DNA of 60,807 bases from a virus (Duplodnaviria; Caudoviricetes): positions 1 through 60,807 of IMG/VR virus record IMGVR_UViG_3300045944_000168, one strand, 5' to 3'. The position numbers and the translations under genes are program-made. How positions within the stretch are numbered: the first letter of the stretch is position 1; each line of letters opens with the position of its first letter. The notes under the pieces are model-generated. The model was given only the letters and a program-made list of their open reading frames with translations, searched no databases and was not told the origin of the DNA. This document shows, in pieces, positions 22,894 to 39,844 of this stretch.

Positions 22894-23628
22894 ATGCCCA
22901 TTGGATCGTCTACGGCGTCGCTCGACGGGCAAGCGACGTTCCTCGAAATCTGTCAACAGGCTGTGCAGGAATGCCGGCTGGCCCATGGGGCGAATCGATT
23001 GCCGACTTCGGTGATGGCGCAAGTCGGGGAATTGCGGCGCCTCGTGGATTGGACGGCGGAAGCTTGGTTTGAAATTCAATCGCTGCATCCGAACTGGAAT
23101 TTTAAGCGTCATACCACCACGTTTGTGACTGTTCTGGGCCAAGCAGAATATGCGACGGTTGAATGTAATGTGGATCCCGGCACGTTTGGGCGATGGGTGC
23201 CAGACTCCTTTCGGTGTTATGAAACGGCGGTGGGCCTCTCCTCAGAGCAGCATTTGACGGACATGCCCTATGCGGCATGGCGAGACACCTATCAGTTCGG
23301 TACGATTCGGACCTCGACGGCGCGTCCAAATGTCATCACGCAACTTCCCAATAACGGCTTAGGGCTCGGGTTTGCGCCGCTCGCGGGGTACACCATTCTC
23401 GGCGATTATTTTACCGCGCCGATTCGCATGGAGACCGATGAAGAAATCCCCGAATTGCCGATTGCGCACAGCTACATGATCATTGTGTACAAGGCGATGA
23501 CGTATTACGGCGAAGCTGAGTCCGCGATGGAAGTTCTTTCGAGAGGAGAACGTGGCTATAGCCGGTTGTTGACTGCTTTGCAGGAGGATCAATTGCCGCA
23601 ACTCGTGATGGCAGGAGCGATGTGGTAA
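22894..23628 (+). CDS. head-tail adaptor
   Basis: TFLEICQ..., WNF, IVYKAM..Y; position upstream of the nozzle gene. Confidence 0.7.
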   Translation: MPIGSSTASLDGQATFLEICQQAVQECRLAHGANRLPTSVMAQVGELRRLVDWTAEAWFEIQSLHPNWNFKRHTTTFVTVLGQAEYATVECNVDPGTFGRWVPDSFRCYETAVGLSSEQHLTDMPYAAWRDTYQFGTIRTSTARPNVITQLPNNGLGLGFAPLAGYTILGDYFTAPIRMETDEEIPELPIAHSYMIIVYKAMTYYGEAESAMEVLSRGERGYSRLLTALQEDQLPQLVMAGAMW

Positions 23629-25718
23629 CGATGCCGACTGCACGCACTCCTATCCGTGCGCTTCCAACGATCGAGTATGCCACCATCGAATTTAAAGGTG
23701 GGCTTGATCAAGTCACGCCGGTTCTGCGCTTAGATCCTGGTGTGCCGCGCGATGCGCTCAATTATGAGTGTGCGATCACCGGGGGGCATACGCGAATTGG
23801 GGGATATGAGCGCTACGATGGTCGGTTCAAGCCGGCGGATGCAACGTATTCAATTATTCAGGTGACGGGGTTTGCGAATGTCCCGAGTGTGGGGCAAACC
23901 TTAACCGGACAAACAACCGGAACCACGGCGACCATTGTCGCGGTGGACGAAGCGAAAAATTATATGGCGGTGACGTTGATTGTCGGCGCGGGGTTTTCCA
24001 CGTCGGAAATCGTCAAGGTTGGCACCACTACCATTGGAGTTGCGACCATCGTGACCGTATTCGTGAATGCCCGGTCAAACTCCATTTATCTGAATGCCGC
24101 GGCCGATGTGTACCGTGCGTTGATTGCGGCGCCGCCAGGGTCCGGCGCGATCCGCGGCGTGTTTTCGATGGTCAACGGCAATGTACATGAGGTCTTTGCC
24201 TTTCGCAACAACGCCGGGGGGACCGCGTGCGTACTGCATAAAGCGTCGGTATCGGGGTGGACTGTTGTGCCGTATTTGCATGAAGTTGCATTTACCGGTG
24301 GTAGTGTTGCGCCAACTGAAGGGTTGACCATTACGCAGGGAGCGAATTCTGCCACGGTGCGACGGGTGATGGTGGAATCTGGAACCTGGGGCGGGGGGAC
24401 GGCTGCGGGACGATTGATTATCACGGCGCCGACTCCAGGGAACTTCTCAGCGGGAGCATTGACGACGGGTGGAACCTTAACGCTTGCTGGTGCGCAGACG
24501 GCTATTACGATGTTGCCAAGTGGAACGTTTGAATTTGATGTAGGAAATTTTTCCGGCGCGGCGGGCACACAGCGGATCTATGGGTGCGATGGGTCGAATC
24601 GATGCTTTGAGTTCGACGGCGTGACGTTAGCGCCGATTAAAACAGGACTGACCACTGATGCGCCGACGCATATTGCCGTGCATCAAAATCATTTATTTGT
24701 GAGTTATAAAAGCTCGGTACTGCATTCAGGGATCGGGACGCCGTTTAATTTCACGGCTCTGGCCGGCGCGGCGGAATACGGAACGAGTTTTGTCGTGACC
24801 GGATTCAAGGTGCAGCCTGGCGCGCAGGATACCCCATCGATCTTGATTACGCTGACCCATGGTCTGCGTATCATGTACGGATCGGCGGCGGCGGGATCGA
24901 ATCCGTTCCGCCTTGTGAATTTTCATACTGAGACCGGCGGGGCGGCACGGAGTCTCCAGACCCTGGATCGATCGTACTTTCTTGGGGCAACGGGGGTGCT
25001 GGATTTGGCGCGCGTTCAAGAGTTCGGCAATTTTGCGGCAGCCTCGCTCACGTTTTCCATGCAGCCCTATGTTGAATCGAAACGCACGTTGGTCTCTGCG
25101 AGTTGTACTCATAAAACCAAAAGTCAGTATCGACTGTTCTTCTCAGATGGCAGCGGCCTCTACTTGACGATTGTGAATGGAAAGCCGGTTGGCGCGATGC
25201 CTATCCTCTTTCCTAATCCTGTGACGTGCGCGTTTAATGGGCAATTGTCAAACGGGGTCGAGGTGATTTATTTCGGGTCGACGAACGGCATGGTGTACCA
25301 GTTGGAACGGGGCTCCTCGTTTGATGGAGAGGCGATTGATTACTATTTGACTCCCAATTGGGCGTCGATGAAATCGCCTCGAATTTTGAAGTCGTACCGG
25401 AAGGCGAGCCTTGAAATGTACGGAGATAGCTATGCGGAAGTGGTGTTTAGCTATCATCGTGGATACAGCTCTCCTGAATATGCTGAGCAATCAGGCATTA
25501 CGTATGCCTCGAATTTTCAAGGGGTGCCTCGGTGGGATAGCGGTATTACGTGGGATGCGTTTGTCTGGGATGGATCGACCTTGGGACCGACAGAAATTGA
25601 AGTGAGCGGGGATGGTGAAAATATTCGAGGTCGGTTAGGCGGCAGTTCTGACTACATTTATCCGTTTACAGTGAGTTCACTCACGTTTTCGTATATTCCG
25701 CGTCGAGGGATTAAATGA
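23622..25718 (+). CDS. tail nozzle / tubular protein
   Basis: GGL...P...NYE...GG.RI.GYER N-terminus; beta-propeller-like composition. Confidence 0.7.
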   Translation: MVTMPTARTPIRALPTIEYATIEFKGGLDQVTPVLRLDPGVPRDALNYECAITGGHTRIGGYERYDGRFKPADATYSIIQVTGFANVPSVGQTLTGQTTGTTATIVAVDEAKNYMAVTLIVGAGFSTSEIVKVGTTTIGVATIVTVFVNARSNSIYLNAAADVYRALIAAPPGSGAIRGVFSMVNGNVHEVFAFRNNAGGTACVLHKASVSGWTVVPYLHEVAFTGGSVAPTEGLTITQGANSATVRRVMVESGTWGGGTAAGRLIITAPTPGNFSAGALTTGGTLTLAGAQTAITMLPSGTFEFDVGNFSGAAGTQRIYGCDGSNRCFEFDGVTLAPIKTGLTTDAPTHIAVHQNHLFVSYKSSVLHSGIGTPFNFTALAGAAEYGTSFVVTGFKVQPGAQDTPSILITLTHGLRIMYGSAAAGSNPFRLVNFHTETGGAARSLQTLDRSYFLGATGVLDLARVQEFGNFAAASLTFSMQPYVESKRTLVSASCTHKTKSQYRLFFSDGSGLYLTIVNGKPVGAMPILFPNPVTCAFNGQLSNGVEVIYFGSTNGMVYQLERGSSFDGEAIDYYLTPNWASMKSPRILKSYRKASLEMYGDSYAEVVFSYHRGYSSPEYAEQSGITYASNFQGVPRWDSGITWDAFVWDGSTLGPTEIEVSGDGENIRGRLGGSSDYIYPFTVSSLTFSYIPRRGIK

Positions 25719-26638
25719 AAAAACTCGCGTTAAGTTGTGCGTTTGTGCTGGGCACGTTCTCCATCGTGTGGGGGGTGAACGAATATTATTCACACGGGAG
25801 TTTTCCGTCGCCGTCGTCGCCGGCTACATCGGCATCGATGCGGGCTGAGTTTGATTTAATTTCGTCGGGGTTTGATAAGCTTCCGGTCCTGACTGGGAAT
25901 GGTGGCAAGCTCATCCAGATCAATGGTGGTGGCACGGCGTTGTCGGTCATGCCTGGTGGGTCATTATCTTTAGGTGGCAATCTTGTCTTTAGCGGGGCCT
26001 ATAACACGACGTTTGTTCAGCAACAGACGACGACGCTGACGCTTCCTAGCACCAATGGTACGTTGGTAACGGCGCAGGGCGTTGAGACCCTCTCGAATAA
26101 AGCGCTGAACCTTTCTAATTCCACATTGACCGGTACTACAGCGCAATTCAACAACAGTTTATCGGACGGTGATTTTGCCACTTTAGGAGGCATTGAAACC
26201 CTCACGAGTAAACTGATTCAGTTTCCCGCGTTACAGAATTCTTCGTCCAACGCGAATACGTTGGACGATTACGAAGAGGGAAGTTGGACGCCCAGTGTGG
26301 GCGGCACAGCGACGTATACCACGCAGAACGGGCATTACGTCAAGGTTGGGCGCCTGGTGTGTTTGAACGGACTGCTGACGATCAATACGATTGGCACGGG
26401 AAACCCCAATACGATTTCAGGGATACCGTTTAGTCCGACCTATGACGTAGCCATTCCGATTTCGCGGACAGCGAACCTGTCAACGTCCGTGACTTCGATT
26501 TCGGGGGTCATTTTTGGTGGGTTTTTGTCGGTGGCGCTCTATTCGCGCACAGCAGCCTCAACGTCTGATGCGCAAAACAGCGTGTTAGGGAACGGCTCCT
26601 CATTTAGCTTGTCCGGCTGTTATTCCACAGCGACCTAG
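25715..26638 (+). CDS. tail fibre protein with N-terminal signal peptide
   Basis: MKKLALSCAFVLGTFSIVWG| then NEYYSH..P...MRAEFDLI..GFDKLP; C-terminal LDDYEEGSWTP...YVKVGRLV. Confidence 0.7.
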   Translation: MKKLALSCAFVLGTFSIVWGVNEYYSHGSFPSPSSPATSASMRAEFDLISSGFDKLPVLTGNGGKLIQINGGGTALSVMPGGSLSLGGNLVFSGAYNTTFVQQQTTTLTLPSTNGTLVTAQGVETLSNKALNLSNSTLTGTTAQFNNSLSDGDFATLGGIETLTSKLIQFPALQNSSSNANTLDDYEEGSWTPSVGGTATYTTQNGHYVKVGRLVCLNGLLTINTIGTGNPNTISGIPFSPTYDVAIPISRTANLSTSVTSISGVIFGGFLSVALYSRTAASTSDAQNSVLGNGSSFSLSGCYSTAT

Positions 26639-26650
26639 AAAGGATCTGGT

Positions 26651-27043
26651 ATGGCGGCGATTCAACCAACAATTACGCACAAAGTCGGCGATGAAGACGG
26701 CTCGTTGATGTTTGCGGTATGGGTGCTGTCAACGACCGATAATATCGGGATCGGGGTACCCATGGCGGAATGGATTGACCGCACCTGGCACGTCAAGATT
26801 GATGGGGGGGGATCGATTGGCGGCGGGACCGTCGCGGTTGAGACGGCGCCGTCCGATACCAATGCGGACTACGCGGCGTGCAAGAATGCGGCTGGTGGGG
26901 CAGCGATTTCGCTCACGGGTGCGACGTGCGCCACCAGTATTGAAAATGTGGGGTTTATGCGACCGAAACTGAACGGGTCAACGGGGGCGTCTGGGGTGCG
27001 TGTCACTCTTCTGGCGCGTCGTCCGAATACCATGAGGCAATAA
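26651..27043 (+). CDS. tail-region hypothetical protein
   Basis: AAGGA RBS; beta-rich. Confidence 0.6.
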   Translation: MAAIQPTITHKVGDEDGSLMFAVWVLSTTDNIGIGVPMAEWIDRTWHVKIDGGGSIGGGTVAVETAPSDTNADYAACKNAAGGAAISLTGATCATSIENVGFMRPKLNGSTGASGVRVTLLARRPNTMRQ

Positions 27044-27044
27044 G

Positions 27045-27584
27045 ATGGGAAAAACTACGGCATCAGTGGATACGCTCGATCGGCTCGCGGTGCAGCTGTC
27101 CGGGATTCAGGAAGCGGCCAAGCAGCTACGGGAAATCGGTTCGTATGACGGCGCGATCGAAGAATTGAAGAAGCAGAAGGAAACATTGCTCAAGGAGATC
27201 GAGGTTGAGCGGACGACGCTGAGCGAACTGCAGAAAACAATTCAGGCGTCGATTGCCAACGCACAACATGAGGTCGATGAGATCCGCAATACAGCCGCAA
27301 GCATCATCGACGATGCAAAAAGGCAAGCCACGAAAATCGTGCAGGATGCAGAAGCGAAGGCCGTGCAGCGTGCGGCAACAGAACGCACCAAACGGGAAGG
27401 AGATTTGTCCGGCATCCAAAAGCAGATCGATGAAGAAACGATCAAACTGAATGGGATGAAGGCGAAAACCGCACAGGCGCTTGCAAAGATTGATGCGATA
27501 GAAAAACGGGCTCAGGACGCGCAACAGGCACTTGAATCAATTCAAAATGCGGTGAAGGCGCAGGCGAAAGCGCTCGCGGAATGA
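27045..27584 (+). CDS. coiled-coil protein
   Basis: Heptad-rich in A/E/K/Q. Confidence 0.65.
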   Translation: MGKTTASVDTLDRLAVQLSGIQEAAKQLREIGSYDGAIEELKKQKETLLKEIEVERTTLSELQKTIQASIANAQHEVDEIRNTAASIIDDAKRQATKIVQDAEAKAVQRAATERTKREGDLSGIQKQIDEETIKLNGMKAKTAQALAKIDAIEKRAQDAQQALESIQNAVKAQAKALAE

Positions 27585-27593
27585 GTCCACGCC

Positions 27594-27722
27594 ATGCTGA
27601 CGCCAGCGGTAATGATCGCGCTGAAGTTGCTGCAGGGAGCCAGTAACGTTGGAGAGGGGGGCGGAGGGAGCGGAGCGTTGACGTTGTGGCGCCCCACGTG
27701 GATTCCGAGGAGACGTGGATAA
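27594..27722 (+). CDS. small tail-region peptide
   Basis: MLTPAVMIALKLLQ...WRPTWIPRRRG; fills the gap between two genes. Confidence 0.35.
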   Translation: MLTPAVMIALKLLQGASNVGEGGGGSGALTLWRPTWIPRRRG

Positions 27723-28181
27723 GTGTCGGACAATTTTCAGACCGATGCATCGGCGGGTGACGGAAAGACCTTTGCGAGTGATGAAGTTGTTGGGGGGCCG
27801 ACTGGAGGGACGTGTGATTATCCACTCTCAAAACTTGCGTTTGGTCCGCTGGATGCCGCCACGATTGTTGACGATGCGGCCGGGGCTCGATTCCCTGTTA
27901 AGGTTAGCGATGGGCTTGGTGCTGCGGCGGTTTTATCTGGACAGATTTCTCTCTCAGGAGCGGAGTCTGCGCTCTCGGCGGCTGTGGCGAGACGATTCAA
28001 GCTGAAAGCCCATGTGGACAATACTGATGTGGTGTATGTAGGGACGACCGGTGTTACCACGAGTAGTGGCTATCCGCTCTGGCCAGGAGATCCGATGGAT
28101 GTTGAGGTCTCAAATTTGAACGTCGTGCATGCCATTGTGGGATCCGGGACACAGAAGCTGAGTTATTTAGGGTTTGTGTGA
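27723..28181 (+). CDS. tail-region structural protein
   Basis: KAHVDNTDVVYVG...GYPL.PG motif. Confidence 0.6.
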   Translation: MSDNFQTDASAGDGKTFASDEVVGGPTGGTCDYPLSKLAFGPLDAATIVDDAAGARFPVKVSDGLGAAAVLSGQISLSGAESALSAAVARRFKLKAHVDNTDVVYVGTTGVTTSSGYPLWPGDPMDVEVSNLNVVHAIVGSGTQKLSYLGFV

Positions 28182-30550
28182 TGATCATTCTACTTTTCAT
28201 CCTGCTGCTTGCTCCTTCCATCGTCTTTGGACAGACCACGAACTCACGAATACAGGCCGGAGATGGAACGCCGATTACCGATACGACCAATGGTCGATTG
28301 GATGTTACGGTGCAAAATCCGGTCAATGCGGCGCAGAGCGGCACTTGGAATGTGACTAACGTCTCAGGCACGGTATCGTTGCCGACTGGCGCAGCCACAG
28401 AAACGACGTTGGGGACACGGCTGGCCGATGCGACCTTCACGGGGAGATTTCCGGCAGCCTTTGCTTCTGCCGACAACATTGCCGCTCAAACTGCAACGTT
28501 CATTCACGGGGGCTTGTTCGCCTGGGACAGTGGTGGTGGCAATTGGGATCGACTGTTGCTGACCTCGGGGGCGCTGCACGTGAATGTGCAGAATGCGAGC
28601 CTCGCTGTGACGCAATCGGGAGCATGGAGCCTTACGGCGAATGCCGGCTCCAATCTGAATACCTCAGCCTTAGCGCTCGAATCCGGCGGCAATCTGGCAG
28701 GGCTGAACGGAAAATTCCCTGCGGCGGCAGCGTTGGCCAACGATACGGCCAATCCTACCCTTTCGGCCATTGCGTCCTACAACATGTGTTTTGATGGGGC
28801 TACGTGGGACCGGTGCGCGAACATGGCCACGGACACCGATGATAATTCACTTGCGAGTGGACAGGTTACCGGGATCGACATCAGTTTGAACTACGGGTTT
28901 GATGGTACCAATTGGGTGCGGCAACGCGCGTTCTCGTCTGCAGACAATATTGCGGCACAAGTCGGGCAGTTTATGCACGGTGGATTGATGGCCTGGGATT
29001 CAGGCGGTAGCAATTGGGATCGGGTCTTGATTGCCAGCGGACGGCTGCAAGTGGATGGGTCTGGGGTGACGCAACCGATTTCTGGGACGGTGACGGTTGG
29101 TACATTCCCTGATAATGAACCGTTCAACCTTAGCCAGATTGGCGGCAATGCTGTCAGTGCTGGAGTCGGTGTATCTGGAACCGGCACGCTGCGAGTGGCG
29201 GCCATTCTTCATGATGGGACGGATACGGCGTCCGTGACGGCGGCTGGTCGGCTGGAAGTTGAGTGCGGCAATTGTTCAGGATCTGGCGCCACTCATGTAG
29301 ATGATGCTGCTTTTACCGCTACTTCTGACGATGTAGCCCCACTCGGTGCACTCTATGATACGACACCTCCGGCCATTACGGATGGGCGTGTGGGTGTTGC
29401 ACGGATGAATTCCAATCGCGCTTTGATGGTGGACGGCTCCGGCGTCACGCAACCCGTCTCTGGAACGGTGACCGTAACGGACGGCGCCGGCGCGTTGAAT
29501 GTGATTGTCGATTCAGGGTCTCTCACAGCCAACGCGGGAACGAATCTGAATACCTCGGCGCTAGCCCTGGAATCTGGCGGCAATCTGGCGACGGTGGCGG
29601 GGGTGGTGGATGCGACCGGGACGGCCGTGCCAGCCAACACGCTGTTTGTCGGGGGGACGGACGGGACCAATACTCGGGCGCTCAAGACTGATTCGAGCGG
29701 CGAGCTGCAAGTCGACGTGCTCACACTGCCCAGCGTGACGATTGGGACCTTTCCCGACAACGAACCGTTCAATGTGGCGCAAATCAATGGCTCGACGGTG
29801 CAAGTCGCGAGCAACAGCCTCAATACTACTGGCGCGGGCTTGCAAGCGCAGGCGATGGTGGGCCAGTGCGACGACACTTCGCCTACCTCCTTGACCGAGA
29901 ACCAATTCGGGCATGCGCGAATCAACTGCACGACGCACCATCAGCTTGTCGAAGTCGGCGCGGCGCTTCCGACAGGCGCCAATACCATCGGGAATGTGAA
30001 CCCAGGGACGGCAACGAACTGGGGGATCTACGCCGAAGATAACGGCGAAACAGCCGGCGGAAATCTGATGATGGCGGGCACGGTCCGCCGGGATACGGCG
30101 GCGTCCTCAGCGGGATCAACAGGCGACAACGCGACTCTGAACACGGATGCGACCGGCCTCTTGTGGACGCGCTTGATTGATCCCTGTACCTCTGCCGCAA
30201 AAACCTACTTACCGATCAATATTTCCACGGCGGCGACGACTGAAATTACGCCCTCGCTGGCCGGGGGCAGCAATCATTATTACGTGTGTTCGTTGGTGCT
30301 CATTACGGCAGCGGCGAACAACGTGGCCTTGGTGGACGATGATAGCGACGGCTGCGGGTCGGTGACCTCCGGCTTAGCTGGCGGAACCACGGCGGCGTCA
30401 GGATTCAACATGGCGGCGAATGGCGGGCTCACGTTTGGGAATGGTCTCGGGGCGGTGTTCAAGACTGGGGGCACGAATCGGGTGCTCTGTTTGGTCACCA
30501 GTGCGTCGACGCAGCTCTCCGGGACGATGACCGTGGTAGCTGCGCCGTAG
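28178..30550 (+). CDS. repetitive tail fibre-like protein with signal peptide
   Basis: IILLFILLLAPSIVFG|Q; repeated VDGSGVTQP.SGTV, ALALESGGNLA and WDR modules. Confidence 0.7.
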   Translation: MMIILLFILLLAPSIVFGQTTNSRIQAGDGTPITDTTNGRLDVTVQNPVNAAQSGTWNVTNVSGTVSLPTGAATETTLGTRLADATFTGRFPAAFASADNIAAQTATFIHGGLFAWDSGGGNWDRLLLTSGALHVNVQNASLAVTQSGAWSLTANAGSNLNTSALALESGGNLAGLNGKFPAAAALANDTANPTLSAIASYNMCFDGATWDRCANMATDTDDNSLASGQVTGIDISLNYGFDGTNWVRQRAFSSADNIAAQVGQFMHGGLMAWDSGGSNWDRVLIASGRLQVDGSGVTQPISGTVTVGTFPDNEPFNLSQIGGNAVSAGVGVSGTGTLRVAAILHDGTDTASVTAAGRLEVECGNCSGSGATHVDDAAFTATSDDVAPLGALYDTTPPAITDGRVGVARMNSNRALMVDGSGVTQPVSGTVTVTDGAGALNVIVDSGSLTANAGTNLNTSALALESGGNLATVAGVVDATGTAVPANTLFVGGTDGTNTRALKTDSSGELQVDVLTLPSVTIGTFPDNEPFNVAQINGSTVQVASNSLNTTGAGLQAQAMVGQCDDTSPTSLTENQFGHARINCTTHHQLVEVGAALPTGANTIGNVNPGTATNWGIYAEDNGETAGGNLMMAGTVRRDTAASSAGSTGDNATLNTDATGLLWTRLIDPCTSAAKTYLPINISTAATTEITPSLAGGSNHYYVCSLVLITAAANNVALVDDDSDGCGSVTSGLAGGTTAASGFNMAANGGLTFGNGLGAVFKTGGTNRVLCLVTSASTQLSGTMTVVAAP

Positions 30551-30563
30551 GAGGGGGGGATGT

Positions 30564-30809
30564 ATGCCTAATATGGCTGTGCTGGTTGCTGCGTATGTGT
30601 TTCAGAATGGAGTGTTGCAGTGTCAATTGGCGACGGTCACGGCAGACGGACAAGTTGCTGATGTGTTTTTTGCGTATGATTTCGATATGAATACTTCTCA
30701 GTTCAATGCTGAAGTCGAGGCACAGGCCAAAGCGGCTCAGGTAGCTAAAAACGGCGTTGTGTTTGTACCTAGCGATAAAATTCAGATTGCGGCAGGGAGA
30801 GTGACGTGA
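30564..30809 (+). CDS. small tail-region protein
   Basis: GGAGG RBS. Confidence 0.55.
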   Translation: MPNMAVLVAAYVFQNGVLQCQLATVTADGQVADVFFAYDFDMNTSQFNAEVEAQAKAAQVAKNGVVFVPSDKIQIAAGRVT

Positions 30810-31507
30810 AGATTCCGTTGCGAGCCTGGCATCTCTTGGTGGTGCAGCTGGTCTTAGTCGCTTCCCTGGTCTGGGCGGCGAATTCGCGGATTACCGAACT
30901 GACCGAATTGACCACCCCTGCCACTGGCGACATGCTGGAAATCGTCGATGTGTCCGATACGACGGACAACGCGGCTGGCTCCAGCCGCAAAATGCGCGTG
31001 GATCGGATCAGTGAGCAGATCTATGCCTTAGGGAGTGACTACACCAACTCGACGGCTACCGGGACGGAGATTACTGGTATTGGGCCGATGACGGCGCCAG
31101 CAGCCGGGACGTACAAGCTGGAATGTTGGCTGATTGCGCAGAACGCGACCGCCGCGAACGCCGGGGACTTTGGGGTGAACTATACCGGGACCGTCACGCA
31201 AATGTTTGCCACGTTGATTTTCCCAGATCAAGGCCAAACGGCGACGATTGGGACGGCAGACGGCACGGTCACCGGGAACGGCGGTGAGTTGATGGTGACA
31301 CACGGCTCAGTCCTGACCGAATCGACGACGACGCCGAACCTGAACATCATCGACTCCTTTGCGGGGGTGGAGGATGTCTGGATCAATATTCATGCGCTCC
31401 TCACGGTGTCGGATACGGGAGATTTTGAGATCTGGGCCGCGAGCGAATCGACCACAACCTTAACCGTGCAGTCCGGCAGTTATTGCGGTCTGCGGAGGAT
31501 TGCATGA
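30806..31507 (+). CDS. tail fibre-like protein with signal peptide
   Basis: ...LVVQLVLVASLVWA| then ANSRITELTELTTPATGDMLEIVD. Confidence 0.65.
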   Translation: MKIPLRAWHLLVVQLVLVASLVWAANSRITELTELTTPATGDMLEIVDVSDTTDNAAGSSRKMRVDRISEQIYALGSDYTNSTATGTEITGIGPMTAPAAGTYKLECWLIAQNATAANAGDFGVNYTGTVTQMFATLIFPDQGQTATIGTADGTVTGNGGELMVTHGSVLTESTTTPNLNIIDSFAGVEDVWINIHALLTVSDTGDFEIWAASESTTTLTVQSGSYCGLRRIA

Positions 31508-32337
31508 TCGGGCTGATCCTCATTGCGCTATTGTTGTGGGCTGTGCCGAGTTGGGCGGCGCTCGGCATTGGCCAGAGTGAGCTGTGCCGTGCGTTGACCA
31601 CTACCTGCACCACGACGGGGGTGACCACGACCAACGGATCCTCGTTTGTGGTGTGTGTGTCCGGAAATGGCGTGCCGAATACTCCAAGCGACAGCAAAAG
31701 CAACACGTATACCGCGATTGCTACGGAATTATTTCTTGGCGCCAACAACCGCAATCGGTGTTACCACGCACTAAATGCCACTGGTGGATCATCGCATACC
31801 TTTACCGGCTCGATCGCCAGTGGCTCAGTGGTGAGTGTAATTGCTGTGGAAATCACTACAGCGACGACGACGGCGGCGGAAAGCTCAGCCAGGCAGACCG
31901 ATAACGCCACGGCGTTTCTTTCGCCTGGAACCACGACCACGCACGCAGACTCACTGCTGATCGGGTTTCAGACGTTGGAAGGGGGGAGCGCCACCTATAC
32001 GCCGACCCATGGCAATTCGTTTACCGGTCTGGATTCAGAAACCGACGGCGATCTGTATTATCCGGTGTATTCGAGTTATCGCGCGGTATCGAGCGGAACC
32101 TATAATACAAGCATTACAGTGACAGGCTCACCGACCAATACGGGGAATTGGGTGATGGCGTACTACGAAGTGCCTCCGGTGATCTCCGGCTGTCGTTTGC
32201 TCCAAAACGGGACTGATAAACGGTTGACGCAAAACGGGACTGATGGACGGATTTTGCAAGGGGGCGGGGATTGTGAACTCGGCGGCGGCGGACCGGCGGT
32301 GGTCCCTGTCCGCATGATGATAGGTGTGGGGTTATGA
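31504..32337 (+). CDS. tail-region protein with signal peptide
   Basis: MIGLILIALLLWAVPSWA|; Thr/Ser-rich; C-terminal LQNGTD repeats. Confidence 0.65.
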   Translation: MIGLILIALLLWAVPSWAALGIGQSELCRALTTTCTTTGVTTTNGSSFVVCVSGNGVPNTPSDSKSNTYTAIATELFLGANNRNRCYHALNATGGSSHTFTGSIASGSVVSVIAVEITTATTTAAESSARQTDNATAFLSPGTTTTHADSLLIGFQTLEGGSATYTPTHGNSFTGLDSETDGDLYYPVYSSYRAVSSGTYNTSITVTGSPTNTGNWVMAYYEVPPVISGCRLLQNGTDKRLTQNGTDGRILQGGGDCELGGGGPAVVPVRMMIGVGL

Positions 32338-32338
32338 A

Positions 32339-32539
32339 ATGTCGTGGTGTCCGTGGTGCGAAACCAAGGACGATGAAGCAGACAATCGGATTTGCAAGAA
32401 CTGTCGAGAGACATTGCTGAACGAATTGAGAAAAGCGAGCCCCTGTGAGCCTGAGCGGAGTCCGTATGTGACCGTGGTGCGGTGTAATTACTGTGGGCAT
32501 CTGAAGCGGAGTGAGGAAGTGGAAGGACAGGAACGATGA
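32339..32539 (+). CDS. small zinc-finger protein
   Basis: CPWC, CKNC, CNYC. Confidence 0.5.
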   Translation: MSWCPWCETKDDEADNRICKNCRETLLNELRKASPCEPERSPYVTVVRCNYCGHLKRSEEVEGQER

Positions 32540-33930
32540 TGTCTGTACGTAATATGGCCAGATGGAGTCTTGGGGTGGTGCTGTTCTGCCTACTGCATCA
32601 GTCAGTATTTGCAATGGAGCATTATACGGAAGTCTTGAAGGATGGCAAAGGGAACTCCATTAAAGGGGCATCGATCTATGTCTATAACGCCGGCACTACT
32701 ACGCCGTCCCAAATTTATTCAGATAACGGCATTACGCCAAAGGCCAACCCGTTTCTGACCTCCAGCACGATCGATCATCCAGGAGCGTTCGATTTCTACG
32801 CAGTCGGTGGCGTCTACGATATCGTGATTATGAAAGAAGGCTATTCGTTTGATCCGCTGTTGACGAGACGAATTGCGTTGTTTGATCAAACGTCCGGGTT
32901 GGCGATTCCGTATGGACCATCATTTCCTTCCTCTCCCGCTCTGCATTCGCTGTTCATCCTGACCAGCGATAGCGGCGCGAACTGCGAACAAAGCGGGGGA
33001 GTCGTCGTGACGCTTTGTCGATGGGATGGGCTGGCCTGGGCGGTGTTCGGCGGAGGCGGAGGCGGCGGAGGCGGAGGCGGCGGAACAACCGGTTGGCCAT
33101 CGGTCTTAACGGGTGCAGCGGCTACGAGCGAAACGGCAGGGCAGTCCGTCAACATTCGAGGAATCGGTGCGCAGTCAGCCAATGGCAACGATCGCTTCCA
33201 AGGATCTGACGGAATGTTCTACGACGTGTGTGTGGTCGGGAACGTTCGGAACAATTGTAATTATTCTCGGCAACTTAATGCGGGGTTTTATTGGGAGATC
33301 AAGGACGATGATGGCAACGCGATTTTCAGGGTAACGAACGACACGCAGGAACTCACCAACGTAAGGCTGAACGGAGCGAGTTCCGGCAATACAATTATTC
33401 TCACGGAGGAAGATCATTGGGACGTAGCCGCCTGTCAGGATACTACGGCGCAGGCCATCTTCAATCTTCCAACGACGAACGCACCGACCCCCGTTTGTGA
33501 GGGGAGCAACACACGGCTGGCGACGCTCGATTTCAACGATACAACGGATCAGAGTTTCTCTGCTCGATTGATTCTTCCAACAGGGTATCAGTCTACTCCT
33601 GGCATCGATGTCCATTTCCGATGGAAGGCGGCATCGACGTCCGGCACGGTCATGTGGTGCGCGAGATTTGCTCGTGTCGCGGTTGGCTCAACCTCAGATC
33701 CATCGCTTCCATCGGAAACCACGTCGAGTTGTGTGAGTGATACGGCCAACGGTTCGACGCTCACTGAAAATACTACGACCATCGCATCCGTTGCCTGTAC
33801 GTCATGTGCAGCCGGCGATGCCGTTAATGTGGTGGTGTCTCGTGATGCGAACGGCACTTCTGGAACCGACAGTATGACTGGGGACGCTAAGCTCATGAAC
33901 TGGGGGCGAACGTGGACGGTGGCTCACTAA
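32536..33930 (+). CDS. tail fibre/spike-like protein with signal peptide
   Basis: ...LGVVLFCLLHQSVFA| then YNAGTTT...IYSDNG..PKANPF...FYA..G.YDI; poly-Gly linker. Confidence 0.7.
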   Translation: MMSVRNMARWSLGVVLFCLLHQSVFAMEHYTEVLKDGKGNSIKGASIYVYNAGTTTPSQIYSDNGITPKANPFLTSSTIDHPGAFDFYAVGGVYDIVIMKEGYSFDPLLTRRIALFDQTSGLAIPYGPSFPSSPALHSLFILTSDSGANCEQSGGVVVTLCRWDGLAWAVFGGGGGGGGGGGGTTGWPSVLTGAAATSETAGQSVNIRGIGAQSANGNDRFQGSDGMFYDVCVVGNVRNNCNYSRQLNAGFYWEIKDDDGNAIFRVTNDTQELTNVRLNGASSGNTIILTEEDHWDVAACQDTTAQAIFNLPTTNAPTPVCEGSNTRLATLDFNDTTDQSFSARLILPTGYQSTPGIDVHFRWKAASTSGTVMWCARFARVAVGSTSDPSLPSETTSSCVSDTANGSTLTENTTTIASVACTSCAAGDAVNVVVSRDANGTSGTDSMTGDAKLMNWGRTWTVAH

Positions 33931-35084
33931 TGACACGGATCATTCTCCTGTTTCTCCTGCTCTTCTGTTGGTCCAGTGCGCCACAGGCGCAGCTGGCCAA
34001 AGTGGTGTATCTCGCGCCATATGACGGAGACGGGAGCGGAGAGAACCCGTTCCGCCCACGTGGGATGGACGAACAGACCGGATGTATCGATGTGCGCAAG
34101 AATCCAGAGCAAGCGGCCGGGGTCGCGATCTGTGGACGCCAGAGTCTTCCGGCGGGAACCGGCTATATCGAACTCTCAAATCGGTTGGACGGCATCTTGA
34201 GCCGTGCACAGCGACAGGCGATCGAAAGTCGTCTATTGGACGGCGACACGCTTACGGCCACGGACGTACCGGGCATTCTCGTGGAACTCTTGATTGATCG
34301 GCGGAGCGGCGCAAATAAGCTCCGCCAGAATCGTGACGGGAAATACCACATTTATCTCGGTCGAGAAGAGGCGGTCAAGCGCACGGCCTGGCTCTACGAT
34401 CAGTGGCACGTGAACGATAACGGTCTTGTGGCTGATACCACTAATGCCGTTTTCGCGCTACTGCAACCATCGCTCGCGTGGGCGGCCTCCTATACCGAAG
34501 ATTGGGACTGTGCCGACAACGCGGCGCTCACCTGCGACCTCACATGGACGGAAGTCACCGGGACAGGGTGGGAGATTTTCTCCAACGTGGCTCGCACCCT
34601 GACGACGGCGACGGGACGGGCACGCGCAGAGAGTGCGTTAGACACGGACGATCATAAAGTCTCTGCCACCATGACGACCTTTGCCATTACTGGCGGGACG
34701 TTTGGGCGCTGCGGTGTGATGGGGCGGAAAGACGGTACGTCGGCGAATAATTCATACGTGTTCGTGGCGAACAATTTCTCTACGACTAGCGGCTTCGAGC
34801 TTGGCGTGTTTACGGGCGGCGCGATTTCGGTGATTGGCACCAGTACGCAAGATCAGGTCGATGGCGATGTCCTTACGCTCATCGTGGATGGATCGAGCAT
34901 CAGTGGGGATGTCGATACGTCGGTCATCGTCGGGCCGGTGACGGATATGGCTGTTTCTGGAAATCTGTATGGCGGTATTTATAGCAACGGCAATAACACG
35001 AACTTGGATTGCCGATTGAATAATTTTGCAACTGAAGATCTCCCTCCTCCTCCATGGAGTGGAGTGTTAAGGAGACGTGCATGA
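33930..35084 (+). CDS. tail-region protein with signal peptide and lectin-like C-terminal domain
   Basis: MTRIILLFLLLFCWSSAPQA|; beta-sandwich composition. Confidence 0.6.
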   Translation: MTRIILLFLLLFCWSSAPQAQLAKVVYLAPYDGDGSGENPFRPRGMDEQTGCIDVRKNPEQAAGVAICGRQSLPAGTGYIELSNRLDGILSRAQRQAIESRLLDGDTLTATDVPGILVELLIDRRSGANKLRQNRDGKYHIYLGREEAVKRTAWLYDQWHVNDNGLVADTTNAVFALLQPSLAWAASYTEDWDCADNAALTCDLTWTEVTGTGWEIFSNVARTLTTATGRARAESALDTDDHKVSATMTTFAITGGTFGRCGVMGRKDGTSANNSYVFVANNFSTTSGFELGVFTGGAISVIGTSTQDQVDGDVLTLIVDGSSISGDVDTSVIVGPVTDMAVSGNLYGGIYSNGNNTNLDCRLNNFATEDLPPPPWSGVLRRRA

Positions 35085-37879
35085 TGAAGCAGGCATTGTT
35101 TGCTGTGGTCTGTTTGCTCTGGCTGACAACGGCATATTGGCTCACGTTTGCGCAGGCTCCGATCGTGACGTATTGGGTTTCTCCCTCTGGGAGTGACGCG
35201 AATGCCTGTTCGGCAGTCGATGGGAGCACTGATCCCGGCGTGTATAAAGCGACGCCAAACGGGGTCATGACCTGCCTCACAGGGGGCGGGAAGGCCATTA
35301 TTCGAGCTGGAACGTATACCGGTTCGACGGCCCATTTCCGCAATCTGCCGTCCGGGACGCCAGGATCTCCCATCATTATTGAAGGCGATCCCAACGATTC
35401 TCCAGGATGTGCGTTGGCCGAAACGTGTTCAACGATTTTGCAGCCGGCCACTGGGTCTGTGAACTCCATCATTCCAGCGTCAAATTATATTATCCGCAAG
35501 TTCATTATCGATCATACGAACAACCGGAATTATCCGATCCGCATTGGTGGGAATGGAGTGACGACTTGTACTAACGTCCTGATTGAGGATGTGGTTTTGC
35601 GGAACACGCAACTGTCTGATGGTGGAGCCGGGGGAGCTACGGGGCTGATTACGGATGATGCTTGTAATTTCATTACCTTCAGACGGATGCATATTCATCA
35701 TAATGGGGAAGTCCCTGGCGGTGGCCCTGGCGGGTATTTTCAGAGTGATGATACGACGTTTGAGGATGGGTGGGTTCACCATAACTCATATATTGGGATT
35801 CAGTGCTACAGCTCTTTCCCCGGAGTTGCGAGACCGGATCGATGCAAAATCTTACGATCGATCATCGAAAACAACGATAATGCAGGAATATTTCTCGAAG
35901 GAGACGATGATGAAGCCATTGGAAATATCATCAGGAACAACGGAGGAGGAATCGATACGGGGTCAAACGGCGCGGCTAGAGCGCATATCTACAATAATGT
36001 CATCGCAAACGGTAGTATCAACATCGGCGCATCAGGGTCTGGACCTAACTCGATCATTCGAAACAATATTATGATGGGCAATGTGACGGTCAGTGCTGGC
36101 TCCACGGGGACGATTGTGTCTCACAATGCGTGCCTATCATCCAGTAATTGTGGGACGAATAAGCTGACGATTGCATCTATTGCTGATCTGACCGTTTCGT
36201 CCAGCAATTTCAGTTTGAAACCAGGTTCTGCGGCGATTAATGCGGGTATCGATGTCGGGTTGCCGTTCAACGGATCGGCTCCTGATATCGGCATGAGTGA
36301 AACCTTTCTTGTCTCGTCCGCGACGGTGGCGACCAATGTCGTTGAAGTGGTTGTCGGCATGAACCTGAATACGCCGGTTGTCCCGACCTCATCTGGTTGG
36401 TCGGTAGGCTGTACTGGAACGGGATGCGGATCTCCAGTCGTTTCGACTGTTACGCTGAAATCAGGCACCAGCGCCACGATCCAACTGGTGATTACGGGGA
36501 TTACCGGCACGAACTGTGATGCCGGCCAAACCTGGACCGTGAGCTATTCCAGTGCGACCGGCACTACGACGAATTTTACGTGGGTTGTCAATCGGCAAGC
36601 CTTGACGAGTGCTACGAATTTCGCAGTGACGAACAATTGTACGGGCGGTGGGCCACCTCCACCGGCCGGATTGCATATTTATTACAAGCTTGATGATGGG
36701 ACCGGTACGAATGCCAACGATGAGACAGCGAACAATCTGGATGGGACCTTAACGAATAGTCCAGCGTGGGTCGCGGCCCGCAATGGGCAGGGTGTGTCCA
36801 TCACGCAAGCCAGTACCCAATATATTGCCATGCCCTATGGTAGCGGGATCAATCCTCTCTCGCAATCGCTCACCGTCTCCTTCTGGGTCTATGTCACCGA
36901 TGTGAATTTCCTGGGAATTCGCTGGGGCGCGCCACTCGGCACGAATCAACGGCTGTATATCGGACAACAGAGCGGCACGTGGCGAATTGGCGTGCAGGAT
37001 TCTAACTACAGCACAGGGGCGTCAGATAAAGCAGTGGAAGTCGGCTGGACGCATCTTTGTATGACAGTGGACAACGCGACGCCTGGTAGCGGTACAGGGA
37101 CTGCGACGTTGCATGTCAATGGAGTTGCGTCAAATTCTCCGAATGCGAAGAAGACCTATACGTCCTACGCGCTAGCCGACAATTTCCGTGTGGGTGGCAT
37201 TGCAGCGAATCCTACTCCCGGAGGCATCTATGACGATGTAAAACTATGGCTTGGTATTGTTTCTTGTGCCGACGATTTTGCTTCCTCTAATCCTCCTACT
37301 TCTCCGTGGATCGGCACACTTTCGTCTGTCGCTGCGCAATTTTATATGACCAAGACAGATCCGGCCAGTGTGCTGATCCCGCTTGGGAAAAACAACGCCA
37401 ACGTGACAATCCCTCCTGGGGGGGCATGGGCCTTGTTGCTCGAAACGAAATGCGAGGCGGGTGTGAATTGTACGCCGATCGGGCAAAAGCTCTTTTATTC
37501 CTGTGCGGCCTGTCCGAGTAATGGATCGATTTTATTGATGCCGAACACGGCGACCACGGACGGCATTGAATTTTGGGGCCAGACCACGGAGCCAGGATTG
37601 TTGAGTGGAGCACCACCGAACAAACTGACGACCGGTACGTCAGTGGATGTGGCAGGCGGAACAAACCCGAATGCCGATACAATCCCTGTGGTGGGATTGA
37701 ATCAAAATCAAAGCACGGTGATTGCGTATCTTGGCCGTATTGTTCCAGGAACGCCGACCGGGCGAACGTTCTGTATGAAGCCGCGCGAGCAATCCGGGCT
37801 CGATTTAAATGGTGGCTATACGCCGCCTGGAGGAGCGTGTGTGACGGTAGGCATTCCAACTTCGACTGGCGGGCCGTGA
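35081..37879 (+). CDS. tailspike-like parallel beta-helix + LamG-like protein with signal peptide
   Basis: ...FAVVCLLWLTTAYWLTFAQA|; YWVSPSGSDAN; IxNN repeats; GSAAINAG...APDIG; YYKLDDGTG...WTHL...YDDVK. Confidence 0.75.
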   Translation: MMKQALFAVVCLLWLTTAYWLTFAQAPIVTYWVSPSGSDANACSAVDGSTDPGVYKATPNGVMTCLTGGGKAIIRAGTYTGSTAHFRNLPSGTPGSPIIIEGDPNDSPGCALAETCSTILQPATGSVNSIIPASNYIIRKFIIDHTNNRNYPIRIGGNGVTTCTNVLIEDVVLRNTQLSDGGAGGATGLITDDACNFITFRRMHIHHNGEVPGGGPGGYFQSDDTTFEDGWVHHNSYIGIQCYSSFPGVARPDRCKILRSIIENNDNAGIFLEGDDDEAIGNIIRNNGGGIDTGSNGAARAHIYNNVIANGSINIGASGSGPNSIIRNNIMMGNVTVSAGSTGTIVSHNACLSSSNCGTNKLTIASIADLTVSSSNFSLKPGSAAINAGIDVGLPFNGSAPDIGMSETFLVSSATVATNVVEVVVGMNLNTPVVPTSSGWSVGCTGTGCGSPVVSTVTLKSGTSATIQLVITGITGTNCDAGQTWTVSYSSATGTTTNFTWVVNRQALTSATNFAVTNNCTGGGPPPPAGLHIYYKLDDGTGTNANDETANNLDGTLTNSPAWVAARNGQGVSITQASTQYIAMPYGSGINPLSQSLTVSFWVYVTDVNFLGIRWGAPLGTNQRLYIGQQSGTWRIGVQDSNYSTGASDKAVEVGWTHLCMTVDNATPGSGTGTATLHVNGVASNSPNAKKTYTSYALADNFRVGGIAANPTPGGIYDDVKLWLGIVSCADDFASSNPPTSPWIGTLSSVAAQFYMTKTDPASVLIPLGKNNANVTIPPGGAWALLLETKCEAGVNCTPIGQKLFYSCAACPSNGSILLMPNTATTDGIEFWGQTTEPGLLSGAPPNKLTTGTSVDVAGGTNPNADTIPVVGLNQNQSTVIAYLGRIVPGTPTGRTFCMKPREQSGLDLNGGYTPPGGACVTVGIPTSTGGP

Positions 37880-38055
37880 TCGAATACATCTGGCAGCGTG
37901 CCTGCCCACAATGCGGGAGACACTTAGCACGCCTCTGTGAATACGGGGTTGCATGGCTCTGTAAGTGCGGATGGACCACTGCCGATGTAAGCAGAGCAAT
38001 ACGAAAGCCTGAGCACCCACAGAATGTTGAGAATGTGTTCCACGGGGAACAATGA
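37876..38055 (+). CDS. small zinc-finger protein
   Basis: GTGA-coupled; CPQC...CKCG. Confidence 0.45.
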   Translation: MIEYIWQRACPQCGRHLARLCEYGVAWLCKCGWTTADVSRAIRKPEHPQNVENVFHGEQ

Positions 38056-38477
38056 TGGTTTTAGATCTCATCAGGGTGGGCTCCTCGAATCGCGGGACAT
38101 TCGGCGTGTTGCGTCATGGCCAAGTACCGTTTGTCCTGACCCTAGAGCGACCCTGGCTGGACAATCAACAGAACGTCTCGTGTATTCCGGCTGGGCGCTA
38201 TCGCTGTCGCAAGATCCGATCGCCGAAGTTCGGGAATACCTATGAGATTTGCGATGTCCCGAACCGAACGCACGTATTATTTCACAGCGGCAATGTTATT
38301 GAGGATACCGCAGGGTGTATACTCGTCGGTGAAGAGTTCAGCGGAACCTGGGATAAACCGATGTTGGTGTCTAGTCAACGCGGGTTTGGCGAATTGATGA
38401 AGTACTTGGATGGCATGCCAGAGTTTGACGTGGTAATTCATGAGTTCTCACTCATCGAGTCGTCGGTTGCCGTATGA
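38052..38477 (+). CDS. DUF5675-family protein, putative endolysin
   Basis: TLERPW..N...SCIPAGRY...VPNR..VLFHSGN...DTAGCILVG; first gene of the lysis cassette. Confidence 0.8.
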   Translation: MMVLDLIRVGSSNRGTFGVLRHGQVPFVLTLERPWLDNQQNVSCIPAGRYRCRKIRSPKFGNTYEICDVPNRTHVLFHSGNVIEDTAGCILVGEEFSGTWDKPMLVSSQRGFGELMKYLDGMPEFDVVIHEFSLIESSVAV

Positions 38478-38666
38478 AGAAACCCAGGGTGTTTCGCTGT
38501 CCAAATTGTGGCGGATCGGTGATTGCGCATGAAGTCAATGTTCACCTACGGGAGTGCGAGAAAGGGAAACGGTAGCGGGAACCGTGTAAGGCTGGCTAAT
38601 GCGCCAGTAGCCTCCTATATAGAAATCGTTGTACCGTCCATTTAACAGTAGGGAGGCTGTCATGAA

Positions 38667-38954
38667 ATGGTGGACGGTACAGGTAGTTTGGAACTCGGCC
38701 CTACGTATAAAACCCTTTTCCTTGGTGCTTGCGTTGTTATTGGGGGGGCTGTTGGGTGGTTTGTGCAGGACATTCGTCACTCCGTCGACGAACTCACTCG
38801 TGAGCATTACGCGCTTCTCGACCGACAGCGCGAGTTGGAGACAGGAGCGAGCGCATATAAATGCAGCCGAGAGAGAGATCATGTTGAGGATACGGAAATC
38901 AAGCGTCGTCTGGCTGAAATTGAACAGGAATTAAGATGGAAGAGCAAGCGATAG
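38667..38954 (+). CDS. membrane protein (holin/antiholin-like)
   Basis: One TM segment plus coiled coil. Confidence 0.5.
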   Translation: MVDGTGSLELGPTYKTLFLGACVVIGGAVGWFVQDIRHSVDELTREHYALLDRQRELETGASAYKCSRERDHVEDTEIKRRLAEIEQELRWKSKR

Positions 38955-38961
38955 CAGTGTA

Positions 38962-39192
38962 GTGATGATGGACGAAGTTCCGACCCATGGTATGTCCACG
39001 TGGGAGCGGATGCTCCTCACGGCGATTGGGACCATCATCTTTTTTATTCTCTCGGCGACGATTACGCAGGTGATTATTAATTCCAGTCGATTAACGGCGC
39101 TCGAAACGCGGATGGTCGGACACGATGCCGAAATGGATCGGATCTATGGTGAGATTCGCGAGCATCGCAAAATCAGCGAAGGACGGCGATGA
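38962..39192 (+). CDS. membrane protein (holin-like)
   Basis: One TM segment plus coiled coil. Confidence 0.55.
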   Translation: MMMDEVPTHGMSTWERMLLTAIGTIIFFILSATITQVIINSSRLTALETRMVGHDAEMDRIYGEIREHRKISEGRR

Positions 39193-39560: not shown

Positions 39561-39568
39561 GAGGCACG

Positions 39569-39844
39569 ATGAGTGAGGAGCAGGTTTCAGCGAGCAAATC
39601 TAAGTGGGGGATGAATATCTTTCTCGCGTTCCTTACGTGGTTTCTCATTTCTGGGTTTCTGTCCGTCCTCTCTGCACTCTTCTTCTGGCATGTTCCGGAT
39701 GGGAATAAGGAAATACTGGTATATATGGCCGGCCAACTTTCAGGGTTTACCGGATCGGCGGTTGCGCTCTGGACGAACACAACTTATCAGAGCGCTCAGA
39801 AAACGGAGATGCTGGCGAAGTCGGGGCCGATTGATCCGCATTAA
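39569..39844 (+). CDS. putative holin
   Basis: GGAGG RBS; two TM segments; VPDGNKEIL..M.GQL. Confidence 0.65.
   Translation: MSEEQVSASKSKWGMNIFLAFLTWFLISGFLSVLSALFFWHVPDGNKEILVYMAGQLSGFTGSAVALWTNTTYQSAQKTEMLAKSGPIDPH

Follow-up and report, generated by a model that had tools for sequence, protein, structure and literature searches.

Tailed-phage morphogenesis is taught as wholly cytoplasmic, and the locus described here raises the question of what Sec-type leaders are doing on the fibre genes of a tailed phage. The window, by which we mean the whole stretch of DNA analysed, is the 60,807-bp IMG/VR virus record IMGVR_UViG_3300045944_000168 (Duplodnaviria; Caudoviricetes), a podovirus-like phage genome rated 97% complete. 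Directly 3' of its putative nozzle gene lies a 12-kb fibre module of 12 open reading frames (ORFs; 25715-37879), and Sec-type leaders are found on all seven of its ORFs of at least 233 amino acids (aa) and on none of the five ORFs of 71-179 aa. On balance, we think that the leader-bearing proteins are exported, signal-peptidase-cleaved receptor-binding proteins that would dock onto the tail at lysis. Proteins 1, 2 and 3 of this account (25715-26638, 30806-31507 and 32536-33930, all on the + strand), and most of the seven leader-bearing proteins, are probably receptor-binding fibres or spikes made as preproteins.

The seven leader-bearing ORFs start at 25715, 28178, 30806, 31504, 32536, 33930 and 35081, and all share one pattern: after a short basic stretch comes a hydrophobic core, and positions -1 and -3 hold small residues. 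Leaders were called with a crude heuristic of our own and with junctions defined by homology. They are 18-26 aa long in the window and 17-51 aa in homologues (medians 19-24), with Leu/Val/Phe-rich cores of ~10-15 residues; among homologues the sequences vary freely while the signal-like character is kept. The first eight residues carry a net charge of at least +1 in 29/29 family-1, 26/28 family-2 and 4/7 family-3 homologue leaders. Small residues stand at -1/-3 of the homology junction in 55/55 family-1 leaders (counted as a small -1/-3 site within -1 to +2 of the junction), 28/28 family-2 leaders and 7/7 family-3 leaders, and the -1 residue itself is A, G or S in all 28 of family 2 and A in all seven of family 3. 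A twin-arginine-like motif (RRx-hydrophobic-hydrophobic) occurs in 0/28, 1/29 and 0/7 homologue leaders of families 2, 1 and 3 and in none of the window leaders, and a Tat signal peptide was therefore rejected. The leaders are thus best described as predicted Sec-type signal peptides that signal peptidase I could cleave. Among type-1 homologues, a few leaders contain SRRW(L/C)LW (P0085, P0184) and are possibly Tat-like, and some end in a lipobox-like VVGC (P0055, P0061, P0064) and may be lipoprotein variants. In the window, each of the seven leader starts shares 1 or 4 nt with the stop codon before it, and five of the seven are preceded by clear Shine-Dalgarno (SD)-like sites (e.g. GAGGG, GGGAG, GGAGG, AAGGAG). 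Because of these overlaps and sites, we take the leaders to be real translated features.

A sequence-only reading of this DNA had proposed that virion-attachment motifs begin directly behind predicted cleavage sites at 25775, 30878 and 32614. The motifs are indeed present at these positions, and the homologues of all three proteins fall into two states, the N-module starting within residues 1-5 in one and immediately after a leader of 17-51 aa in the other. The accompanying idea that such motifs normally start at Met1 also holds in all three families, as judged from homologue offsets and, for protein 3, from cultured-phage tailspikes. Methionine aminopeptidase removes Met before a small residue, so that MADTKIS becomes ADTKIS and MANDYY becomes ANDYY, and leaves Met-Glu with its Met. 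Cleavage at the predicted sites would yield A(D/N)SRIT, (A)NDYY or VNEYY, and MEHY, next to leaderless ends of ADTKIS, ANDYY or SEYY, and MELK; the register is the one expected if cleavage regenerates the docking end.

Protein 1 (307 aa) consists of a leader, a type-1 N-module, a short shaft and a C-terminal tail-fibre tip domain. Its 20-aa leader (25715..25774, +; sequence MKKLALSCAFVLGTFSIVWG, ending in IVWG) follows a GAGGG SD-like site located 5 nt 5' of ATG25715. The N-module (25775..25990, +) is the presumed nozzle/adaptor-docking end, on the evidence of the two-state offset and of nozzle adjacency. The mature N-terminus that had been quoted for this protein is present, but its first residue needs correction: 25775 is codon 21, a GTG encoding Val, the quoted Asn lies at 25778, and the predicted mature end reads VNEYYSHG...MRAEFDLISSGFDKLP. 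Residues ~146-242 match tail-fibre, tailspike or 'endosialidase' genes in 45 phage records. Among the 120 homologues listed, 51 carry a type-1 module, 29 of them behind varied leaders and 22 at residues 2-4. Searched exhaustively, the 72-aa mature module gave 1811 cluster representatives at E<=1e-3, and in the best 150 of these the module is preceded by 0-3 residues in 95, by 17-46 in 55 and by 4-16 in none. Over proteins of 62-1247 aa the module keeps 41-72% identity. Conserved at 58-72% where C-termini differ and lengths range from 119 to 925 aa, it follows the pattern of a docking module.

The position of protein 1 is also constrained. Its start overlaps the stop (ATGA) of a putative nozzle or tail-tube protein (698 aa, leaderless; 23622..25718, +), which is itself preceded by a putative head-to-tail adaptor (244 aa, leaderless; 22894..23628, +). 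Both function labels are positional; the adaptor has conserved homologues directly 5' of the nozzle in related loci and no match in Pfam, PHROGs or the PDB, and the nozzle has no PDB sequence match, its neighbours in the protein Atlas being unnamed viral proteins. The nozzle ORF probably starts at the ATG at codon 4, which is likelier than the GTG (23622-23633), and the Atlas sequence begins at residue 4. A nozzle homologue, 36-73% identical, lies directly 5' of the type-1 fibre gene in 48/48 viral loci, 15 leader-bearing and 33 leaderless, with a gap of at most 90 nt in 46 of them (the gap is 527 nt in L039, and the start call overlapped in L077). When the search was seeded with the nozzle instead, the type-1 module was found at Met1 of the next gene in 6/8 loci extending past the nozzle, and in one relative (L021) the fibre in this slot is the only large ORF 3' of the nozzle. 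Because the adjacency is invariant and includes the 15 leader-bearing loci, the leader-bearing gene fills the primary-fibre slot. The genetic evidence for a type-1 docking end is therefore strong, and the invariant synteny suggests that the end docks on the nozzle or adaptor. The type-1 module has no match to a characterised anchor in the PDB, Pfam or PHROGs, PDB profile searches returning chance-level rows or nothing, and a complex prediction for nozzle, adaptor and a 58-aa type-1 module (each given as an alignment) scored 0.02, which bears neither way on binding.

Protein 2 follows the same architecture. Its 24-aa leader (30806..30877, +; sequence (V/M)KIPLRAWHLLVVQLVLVASLVWA, ending in LVWA) is preceded by a GGGAG SD-like site, and codon 25 of the ORF falls at 30878, where the motif quoted earlier, ANSRITELTELTTPATGDMLEIVD, is found exactly. 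The type-2 N-module (ANSRITELTELT..DVSDTTDNAAGSSRK; 30878..31030, +) stands behind a leader in 28 of 53 homologues and at residues 1-4 in 24, and one homologue is without it. Leader-bearing copies continue from the leader into A(D/N)SRIT.L.ELT, and leaderless copies, which start MADTKISAL.. or MANTRLTDL.., occur inside the structural modules of other phages (L011-L013). The C-terminal part (31031..31507, +) is modelled with a pLDDT of 77.5 as a TNF-like jelly-roll knob such as fibre tips carry, matching TNF ligands, a TNF-like lectin and phage spike knobs (Foldseek E 2e-4). In the family-2 alignment, which like the tree covers the 30/53 proteins that are full-length homologues (P0009, a leaderless call on a 1.8-kb contig, P0016 and N-module-only matches were left out), a Cys pair in this knob is filled in 16/16 leader-bearing and 0/14 leaderless rows. 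The type-2 module has no characterised anchor in Pfam, PHROGs or the PDB, where the profile search gave chance-level rows or nothing. An anchor role is suggested by a conserved N-module joined to varied C-termini in phage structural modules.

Protein 3 (464 aa) is composed of a leader, a head-binding-like domain, a poly-Gly linker and a Cys-rich C-terminal part with 10 Cys. Its 26-aa leader (32536..32613, +; sequence MMSVRNMARWSLGVVLFCLLHQSVFA, ending in SVFA) is followed at codon 27 by ATG32614, the Met that had been noted directly after VFA, and the quoted MEHY...YNAGTTT..IYSDNG..PKANPF is exact. Of nine metagenomic homologues, two are leaderless and seven carry unrelated leaders ending in Ala, after which six read M(E/D)(H/Q/N)Y and one KEHY. 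Translated searches (tblastn) matched 14 cultured-phage records from query residues 21-30 onward, with E 1e-4 to the 'tail fiber protein' of Oceanospirillum phage GJ44 and 0.01-0.6 to other tailspike N-termini. Of four such records examined, two (Serratia phage Spe5P4 and Pantoea phage Vid5) have the Met1 of a tailspike or exopolysaccharide (EPS) depolymerase exactly at Met27, and in the other two Met1 lies within two residues of it.

The first domain of mature protein 3 (32614..32880, +) was modelled as a beta-sandwich (pLDDT 83) resembling tailspike head-binding domains. With VIA-align it scores Z 9.8 to 9vyg_o of the Pan3 tail complex (root-mean-square deviation (rmsd) 2.1 A, 79 residues), 8.9 to 7eeq_A, the Pam1 'Tailspike head-binding domain' (rmsd 3.4 A, 89 residues), and 7.5-7.6 to the P22 and Sf6 domains (1lkt_A of P22: Z 7.6, rmsd 2.2 A, 77 residues), all in N-terminal register, with model residue 4-5 at chain residue 9-14. 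In the PDB, the tailspike N-domains of Pan3 and Pam1 rank first by fold and, marginal as the scores are, by sequence as well (phmmer E 0.014-0.13 to 9vyg, 7eeq and 9vyh chains). A full-length family-3 profile search of the PDB lost the tailspike matches that the single domain had found, and unrelated transthyretin and CnaB domains also score Z ~8. Because the beta-sandwich fold is common, the fold match is supportive and not decisive; taken with the sequence matches, it suggests that this domain is a tailspike head-binding-like anchor. The linker between the N-terminal part and the Cys-rich C-terminal part is a run of 12 glycines (~33060-33100). A 71-aa ORF with seven Cys in CxxC-type pairs, zinc-ribbon-like (32324-32539, +), overlaps the protein 3 start, and small leaderless ORFs also precede other leader genes, at 27723 before 28178 and at 30564 before 30806; these small proteins could be chaperones or regulators.

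The earlier suggestion that the three N-termini resemble anchor motifs is supported by synteny for protein 1 and by sequence and fold matches for protein 3, but types 1 and 2 have no characterised counterpart in the three databases. PHROGs and Pfam hold no family for any of the three proteins, nor for 18/21 homologues; residues 1-48 of one homologue (P0045) weakly match a 'virion structural protein' (E 0.005).

We next considered the direction of change. A tree of the nozzle protein was built from 55/57 rows, two loci (L041 and L062) being left out as they have no long nozzle ORF, and on it the 16 leader-associated rows need two changes. Fourteen leader rows, including the window, form a clade with support 99, nested among leaderless rows, with a leaderless sister clade of 28 rows and a leaderless outgroup of eight. 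Because of this nesting, the leader on the primary fibre is a derived addition, and the proposal that leaders were grafted onto leaderless genes stands for protein 1. Trees of the N-module require at least 6 leader switches in a set of 51 rows and at least 13 in a family-1 set of 138/150 rows, those with at least 150 aa after the junction. Other parts of the analysis drew on 42/51 sequences and on 12 sequences.

Leaders also appear to be a trait of the whole genome, since leader-bearing primary fibres co-occur with further leader-bearing ORFs downstream. Signal-peptide-like downstream ORFs of at least 150 aa number 20/57 in 15 leader loci and 5/62 in 33 leaderless loci (Fisher p 5e-4; called with our heuristic, in loci that are phylogenetically non-independent and include some near-duplicates), compared with 5/84 and 0/141 among upstream structural control genes of leader and leaderless loci. 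In one related viral contig (L041:1416-11236) a leader-bearing primary fibre is followed by six leader-bearing ORFs of 163-509 aa, and a relative with a 77% identical capsid protein (L008) has the same layout, with four leader-bearing fibre-module ORFs.

The view that these are structural genes and not morons is upheld by the stop-start overlaps, the SD-like sites and the primary-fibre slot. There is no leaderless paralogue of any of the three N-modules in the window, and promoter-like sites (9 against 12.5 expected from shuffled sequence) and terminator-like sites (19 against 17.2) show no excess. With no promoter or terminator excess of their own, and on the same strand as neighbours whose stops and starts they overlap, the genes were rejected as morons. 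Two signal-peptide-like ORFs of 112 and 67 aa beside the integrase (53498-53836 and 53837-54040, both on the - strand) are moron-like, unlike the fibre genes.

Four further leader-bearing proteins complete the set of seven. A 790-aa fibre-module protein (28178..30550, +), whose leader ends in IVFG directly before QTTN, has 10 Cys in its mature part and weak matches to phage 'glycoprotein repeat' proteins. A 277-aa protein (31504..32337, +; leader MIGLILIALLLWAVPSWA), with a GGAGG SD-like site and an ATGA overlap, has 6 Cys in its mature part, as does a 384-aa protein (33930..35084, +; leader ending in SAPQA), for which tblastn found no phage match. The last, a 932-aa Beta_helix and Laminin_G_3 protein (35081..37879, +; leader ending in TFAQA), has 22 Cys, no phage match by tblastn and no recognisable fibre N-module. 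In gene order the seven mature parts contain 2, 10, 2, 6, 10, 6 and 22 Cys, all even numbers, and many of these residues lie in close pairs. Cys density is 1.79% over the seven mature parts, against 0.57% in 21 other proteins (0.86% when a Cys-free 2868-aa protein is set aside), and among the 150 family-1 representatives it is 0.54% with a leader and 0.23% without. Disulfide bonding is a plausible idea for this phage, although it is not established as the reason for export. A Pfam scan of the 61 window ORFs showed no DsbA or signal peptidase.

From the leaders, the two-state junctions, the Met1-module homology, the nozzle synteny, the derived leader forms, the fold of protein 3 and the Cys pattern, we infer the following route. 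Late in infection the structural operon would yield fibre preproteins, their translation coupled to that of the nozzle gene, and Sec would export them across the inner membrane. Signal peptidase I would cut at the AXA-like site, leaving an N-terminus in the register of leaderless homologues. The periplasm would be where the fibres fold into trimers, probably disulfide-bonded, and the cytoplasm where capsid, portal, adaptor and nozzle come together. Once holin and spanin breach the envelope the compartments would mix, and the fibres could dock by their N-modules at or after lysis, with the nozzle or adaptor as the target of type 1, and the tail or other fibres as that of types 2 and 3. Classical-phage tailspikes and fibres attach in vitro, and docking outside the cell would for this reason be biochemically ordinary.

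Several points weigh against this route. The leader calls depend on our heuristic and on homology junctions, and the proportions of leader-bearing homologues come from searches seeded with leader-bearing queries and are biased accordingly. The route would also require periplasmic trimers to find tails efficiently as the cell lyses. The grafting proposal does not carry over to protein 2: family 2 changes state once, and a midpoint root would nest leaderless forms inside leader-bearing ones. Its covariation of leader and Cys is likewise a single event on the tree. In family 1, Cys parity is alike with and without a leader (even/zero/odd 21/11/23 vs 25/50/20, p 0.14, 150 representatives), and phylogenetically independent pairs show no link between leader and Cys (138/150 rows). 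Disulfide bonding as a general rule is thus unsupported in that family by parity or by independent pairs, and virions assembled in the cytoplasm can hold extensive disulfide networks, as in phage Milano (PMC10811340). The 932-aa beta-helix protein, lacking a recognisable fibre N-module, may be a free enzyme. Finally, WceF of Pantoea stewartii keeps a head domain although it is exported and no part of a virion (PMC7949094).

WceF leads to the alternative that survives best, one that we regard as unlikely but worth serious weight: the proteins could be secreted or periplasmic, tailspike-like enzymes or adhesins that stay out of the virion and work on the host envelope towards the end of infection, their N-modules being kept for folding or trimer stability. 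Such proteins might destroy or mask receptors and so free progeny, remodel polysaccharide or exclude superinfection. In WceF, a P22-like head domain stands behind a signal peptide that is cleaved off, and the protein needs this domain for its solubility (PMC7949094). In addition, phage relatives of protein 3 are annotated as EPS or colanic-acid depolymerases, and in the 932-aa protein the enzyme-like part starts directly after the leader. However, this explanation leaves the phage without a receptor-binding protein, as there is no leaderless paralogue and every fibre-module ORF of at least 233 aa bears a leader. It also sits poorly with a leader-bearing gene in the invariant nozzle-adjacent fibre slot and with the docking-module pattern of a conserved N-module joined to C-termini of varied sequence and length, and the Tat signal and chromosomal EPS cluster of WceF do not apply to the window proteins. 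We rejected a domesticated WceF-like exported enzyme as a general account of the module: the context is a phage late operon, and the leaders have no RR motif, although protein 3 does share the head-domain-like fold directly after a signal peptide. Some of the seven proteins may nevertheless be free WceF-like enzymes, notably the 932-aa beta-helix protein.

We consider it improbable that the leaders stay uncleaved, serving as membrane tethers or hydrophobic N-terminal plugs on fibres that are used full-length and perhaps kept at the inner membrane up to lysis. Uncleaved signal-anchor (SAR) domains do exist among phage endolysins (PMC7143992). A plain membrane anchor, however, needs no small -1/-3 residues placed exactly at the junction, as they are in every leader counted in the three families (28/28, 55/55 and 7/7). 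The cores are also shorter than a membrane span and Leu/Val/Phe-rich as opposed to the Gly/Ala-rich SAR type, and an uncleaved leader would bury or block an end that is N-terminal in all leaderless homologues.

Slightly more improbable still is dual initiation, in which an internal start, chiefly ATG32614, would give a leaderless virion form and the exported form would have some other role. A Met at +1 is kept in protein 3 and in 6/7 of its leader-bearing homologues, and codon 21 of protein 1 is GTG. Yet the second start once suggested at ATG32614 has no SD-like site 5' of the codon, and GTG25775 has none at usable spacing, a G-run abutting the codon. In families 1 and 2 the +1 residue is generally not encoded by a start codon (A, N, Q, S), and the Met of family 3 is equally explained as a retained structural residue, Met-Glu being left unprocessed by methionine aminopeptidase. 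It is very improbable that the ORF calls run too far 5' and that the leaders are never translated: the ORFs were called mechanically, but all seven leader ORFs have stop-start overlaps, with SD-like sites, leader character is conserved in dozens of homologues of differing sequence, and leaderless homologues have no in-frame extension upstream.

Nearly all window genes lie on the + strand. The early region encodes a C5 cytosine methylase (906-1646), an SNF2-type helicase (3706-5016) and a UvrD-like helicase (8963-11482), and is followed by genes for the large terminase (14160), portal (16252) and major capsid protein (20168). Downstream of the fibre module is a putative lysis region (38052..40473, +) with a DUF5675 protein, a small membrane protein and an Rz-like spanin; because of the spanin match (E 3e-5), the host is taken to have an outer membrane. 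Farther 3' lie presumed internal or ejection proteins without Cys, comprising three at 40913-41938, 42453-43418 and 44082-44867 (all +) and a 2868-aa polyvalent (LPD1/LPD5/LPD38) protein at 44874-53480 (+), followed by the integrase on the minus strand and, at the right end, a LuxR-type regulator (59711-60094). There may be selection against Cys in proteins that cross the periplasm unfolded. A search of genome contigs gave matches on only three contigs of metagenome-assembled genomes (MAGs), labelled Aquiluna, Nitrospiraceae and beta-proteobacterium. The closest relative in that collection (L008) is a 50-kb contig binned with the Nitrospiraceae MAG; because the capsid protein occurs in only 2/301 genomes of that MAG's class, one of them the MAG itself, we do not take the bin as host evidence.

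What these results may add up to is a clade of tailed phages with two-compartment assembly, in which capsid and tail core are made in the cytoplasm and the complete set of up to seven receptor-binding proteins is Sec-exported, trimmed, folded and probably disulfide-bonded in the periplasm, and added at lysis. With repeated switching (at least 13 changes) and leaders in 55 of the best 150 clusters, we rate this broader picture a little short of even. A phage lineage with its complete fibre set under cleavable export signals would represent a new assembly route. Fibre folding would rely on host Sec, signal peptidase and possibly Dsb, and thus on new host factors and routes to resistance; export would also let receptor-binding proteins fold oxidatively and would keep them apart from tails until lysis. 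Annotation pipelines that drop signal-peptide proteins as non-structural would miss such receptor-binding proteins, and recombinant versions of these fibres would have to be expressed in the periplasm. The literature searched gave no report of tail fibres with signal peptides or of such an assembly route in a tailed phage. In one source the absence of signal peptides is itself taken as a sign of phage origin of a binding protein (PMC6199706).

How, then, does the window compare with known systems? The head-binding domains of tailspikes (P22 gp9, Sf6 gp14, Pan3 and Pam1; 1lkt, 7sg7, 9vyg and 7eeq) appear to share the beta-sandwich and the N-terminal position of the first ~90 mature residues of protein 3, but protein 3 differs in its preceding 26-aa Sec-type leader, and the sequence similarity is marginal (E 0.014-0.13). 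Fibres of T7-type podoviruses bind the adaptor-nozzle junction by an N-terminal domain. The window fibres are like them in joining a conserved N-module to exchangeable C-termini and in a gene tied to those of adaptor and nozzle (48/48 adjacency), and unlike them in having no detectable sequence relation to solved fibre anchors and in that a third of their nearest relatives are leader-bearing. The g3p of filamentous phages is a receptor-binding protein with a Sec signal peptide and periplasmic disulfides that joins the virion outside the cytoplasm. Its inoviruses, however, assemble at the membrane without lysis, whereas the window phage is tailed, of lytic type, and builds its capsid and tail core in the cytoplasm. 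Known users of Sec before lysis are the signal-peptide and SAR endolysins and the T4 antiholin RI, which is cleaved (PMC7143992, PMC8385771); like the proposed window fibres they are late phage proteins routed by Sec to the periplasm, but they are lysis proteins and not virion parts. WceF (PMC7949094) resembles protein 3 in having a signal peptide directly before a P22-like head domain in a tailspike-type protein, but it is the product of a single chromosomal gene in an EPS cluster and carries a Tat signal, whereas the window encodes seven predicted Sec-type preproteins in a phage late structural operon, one of them in the fibre slot.

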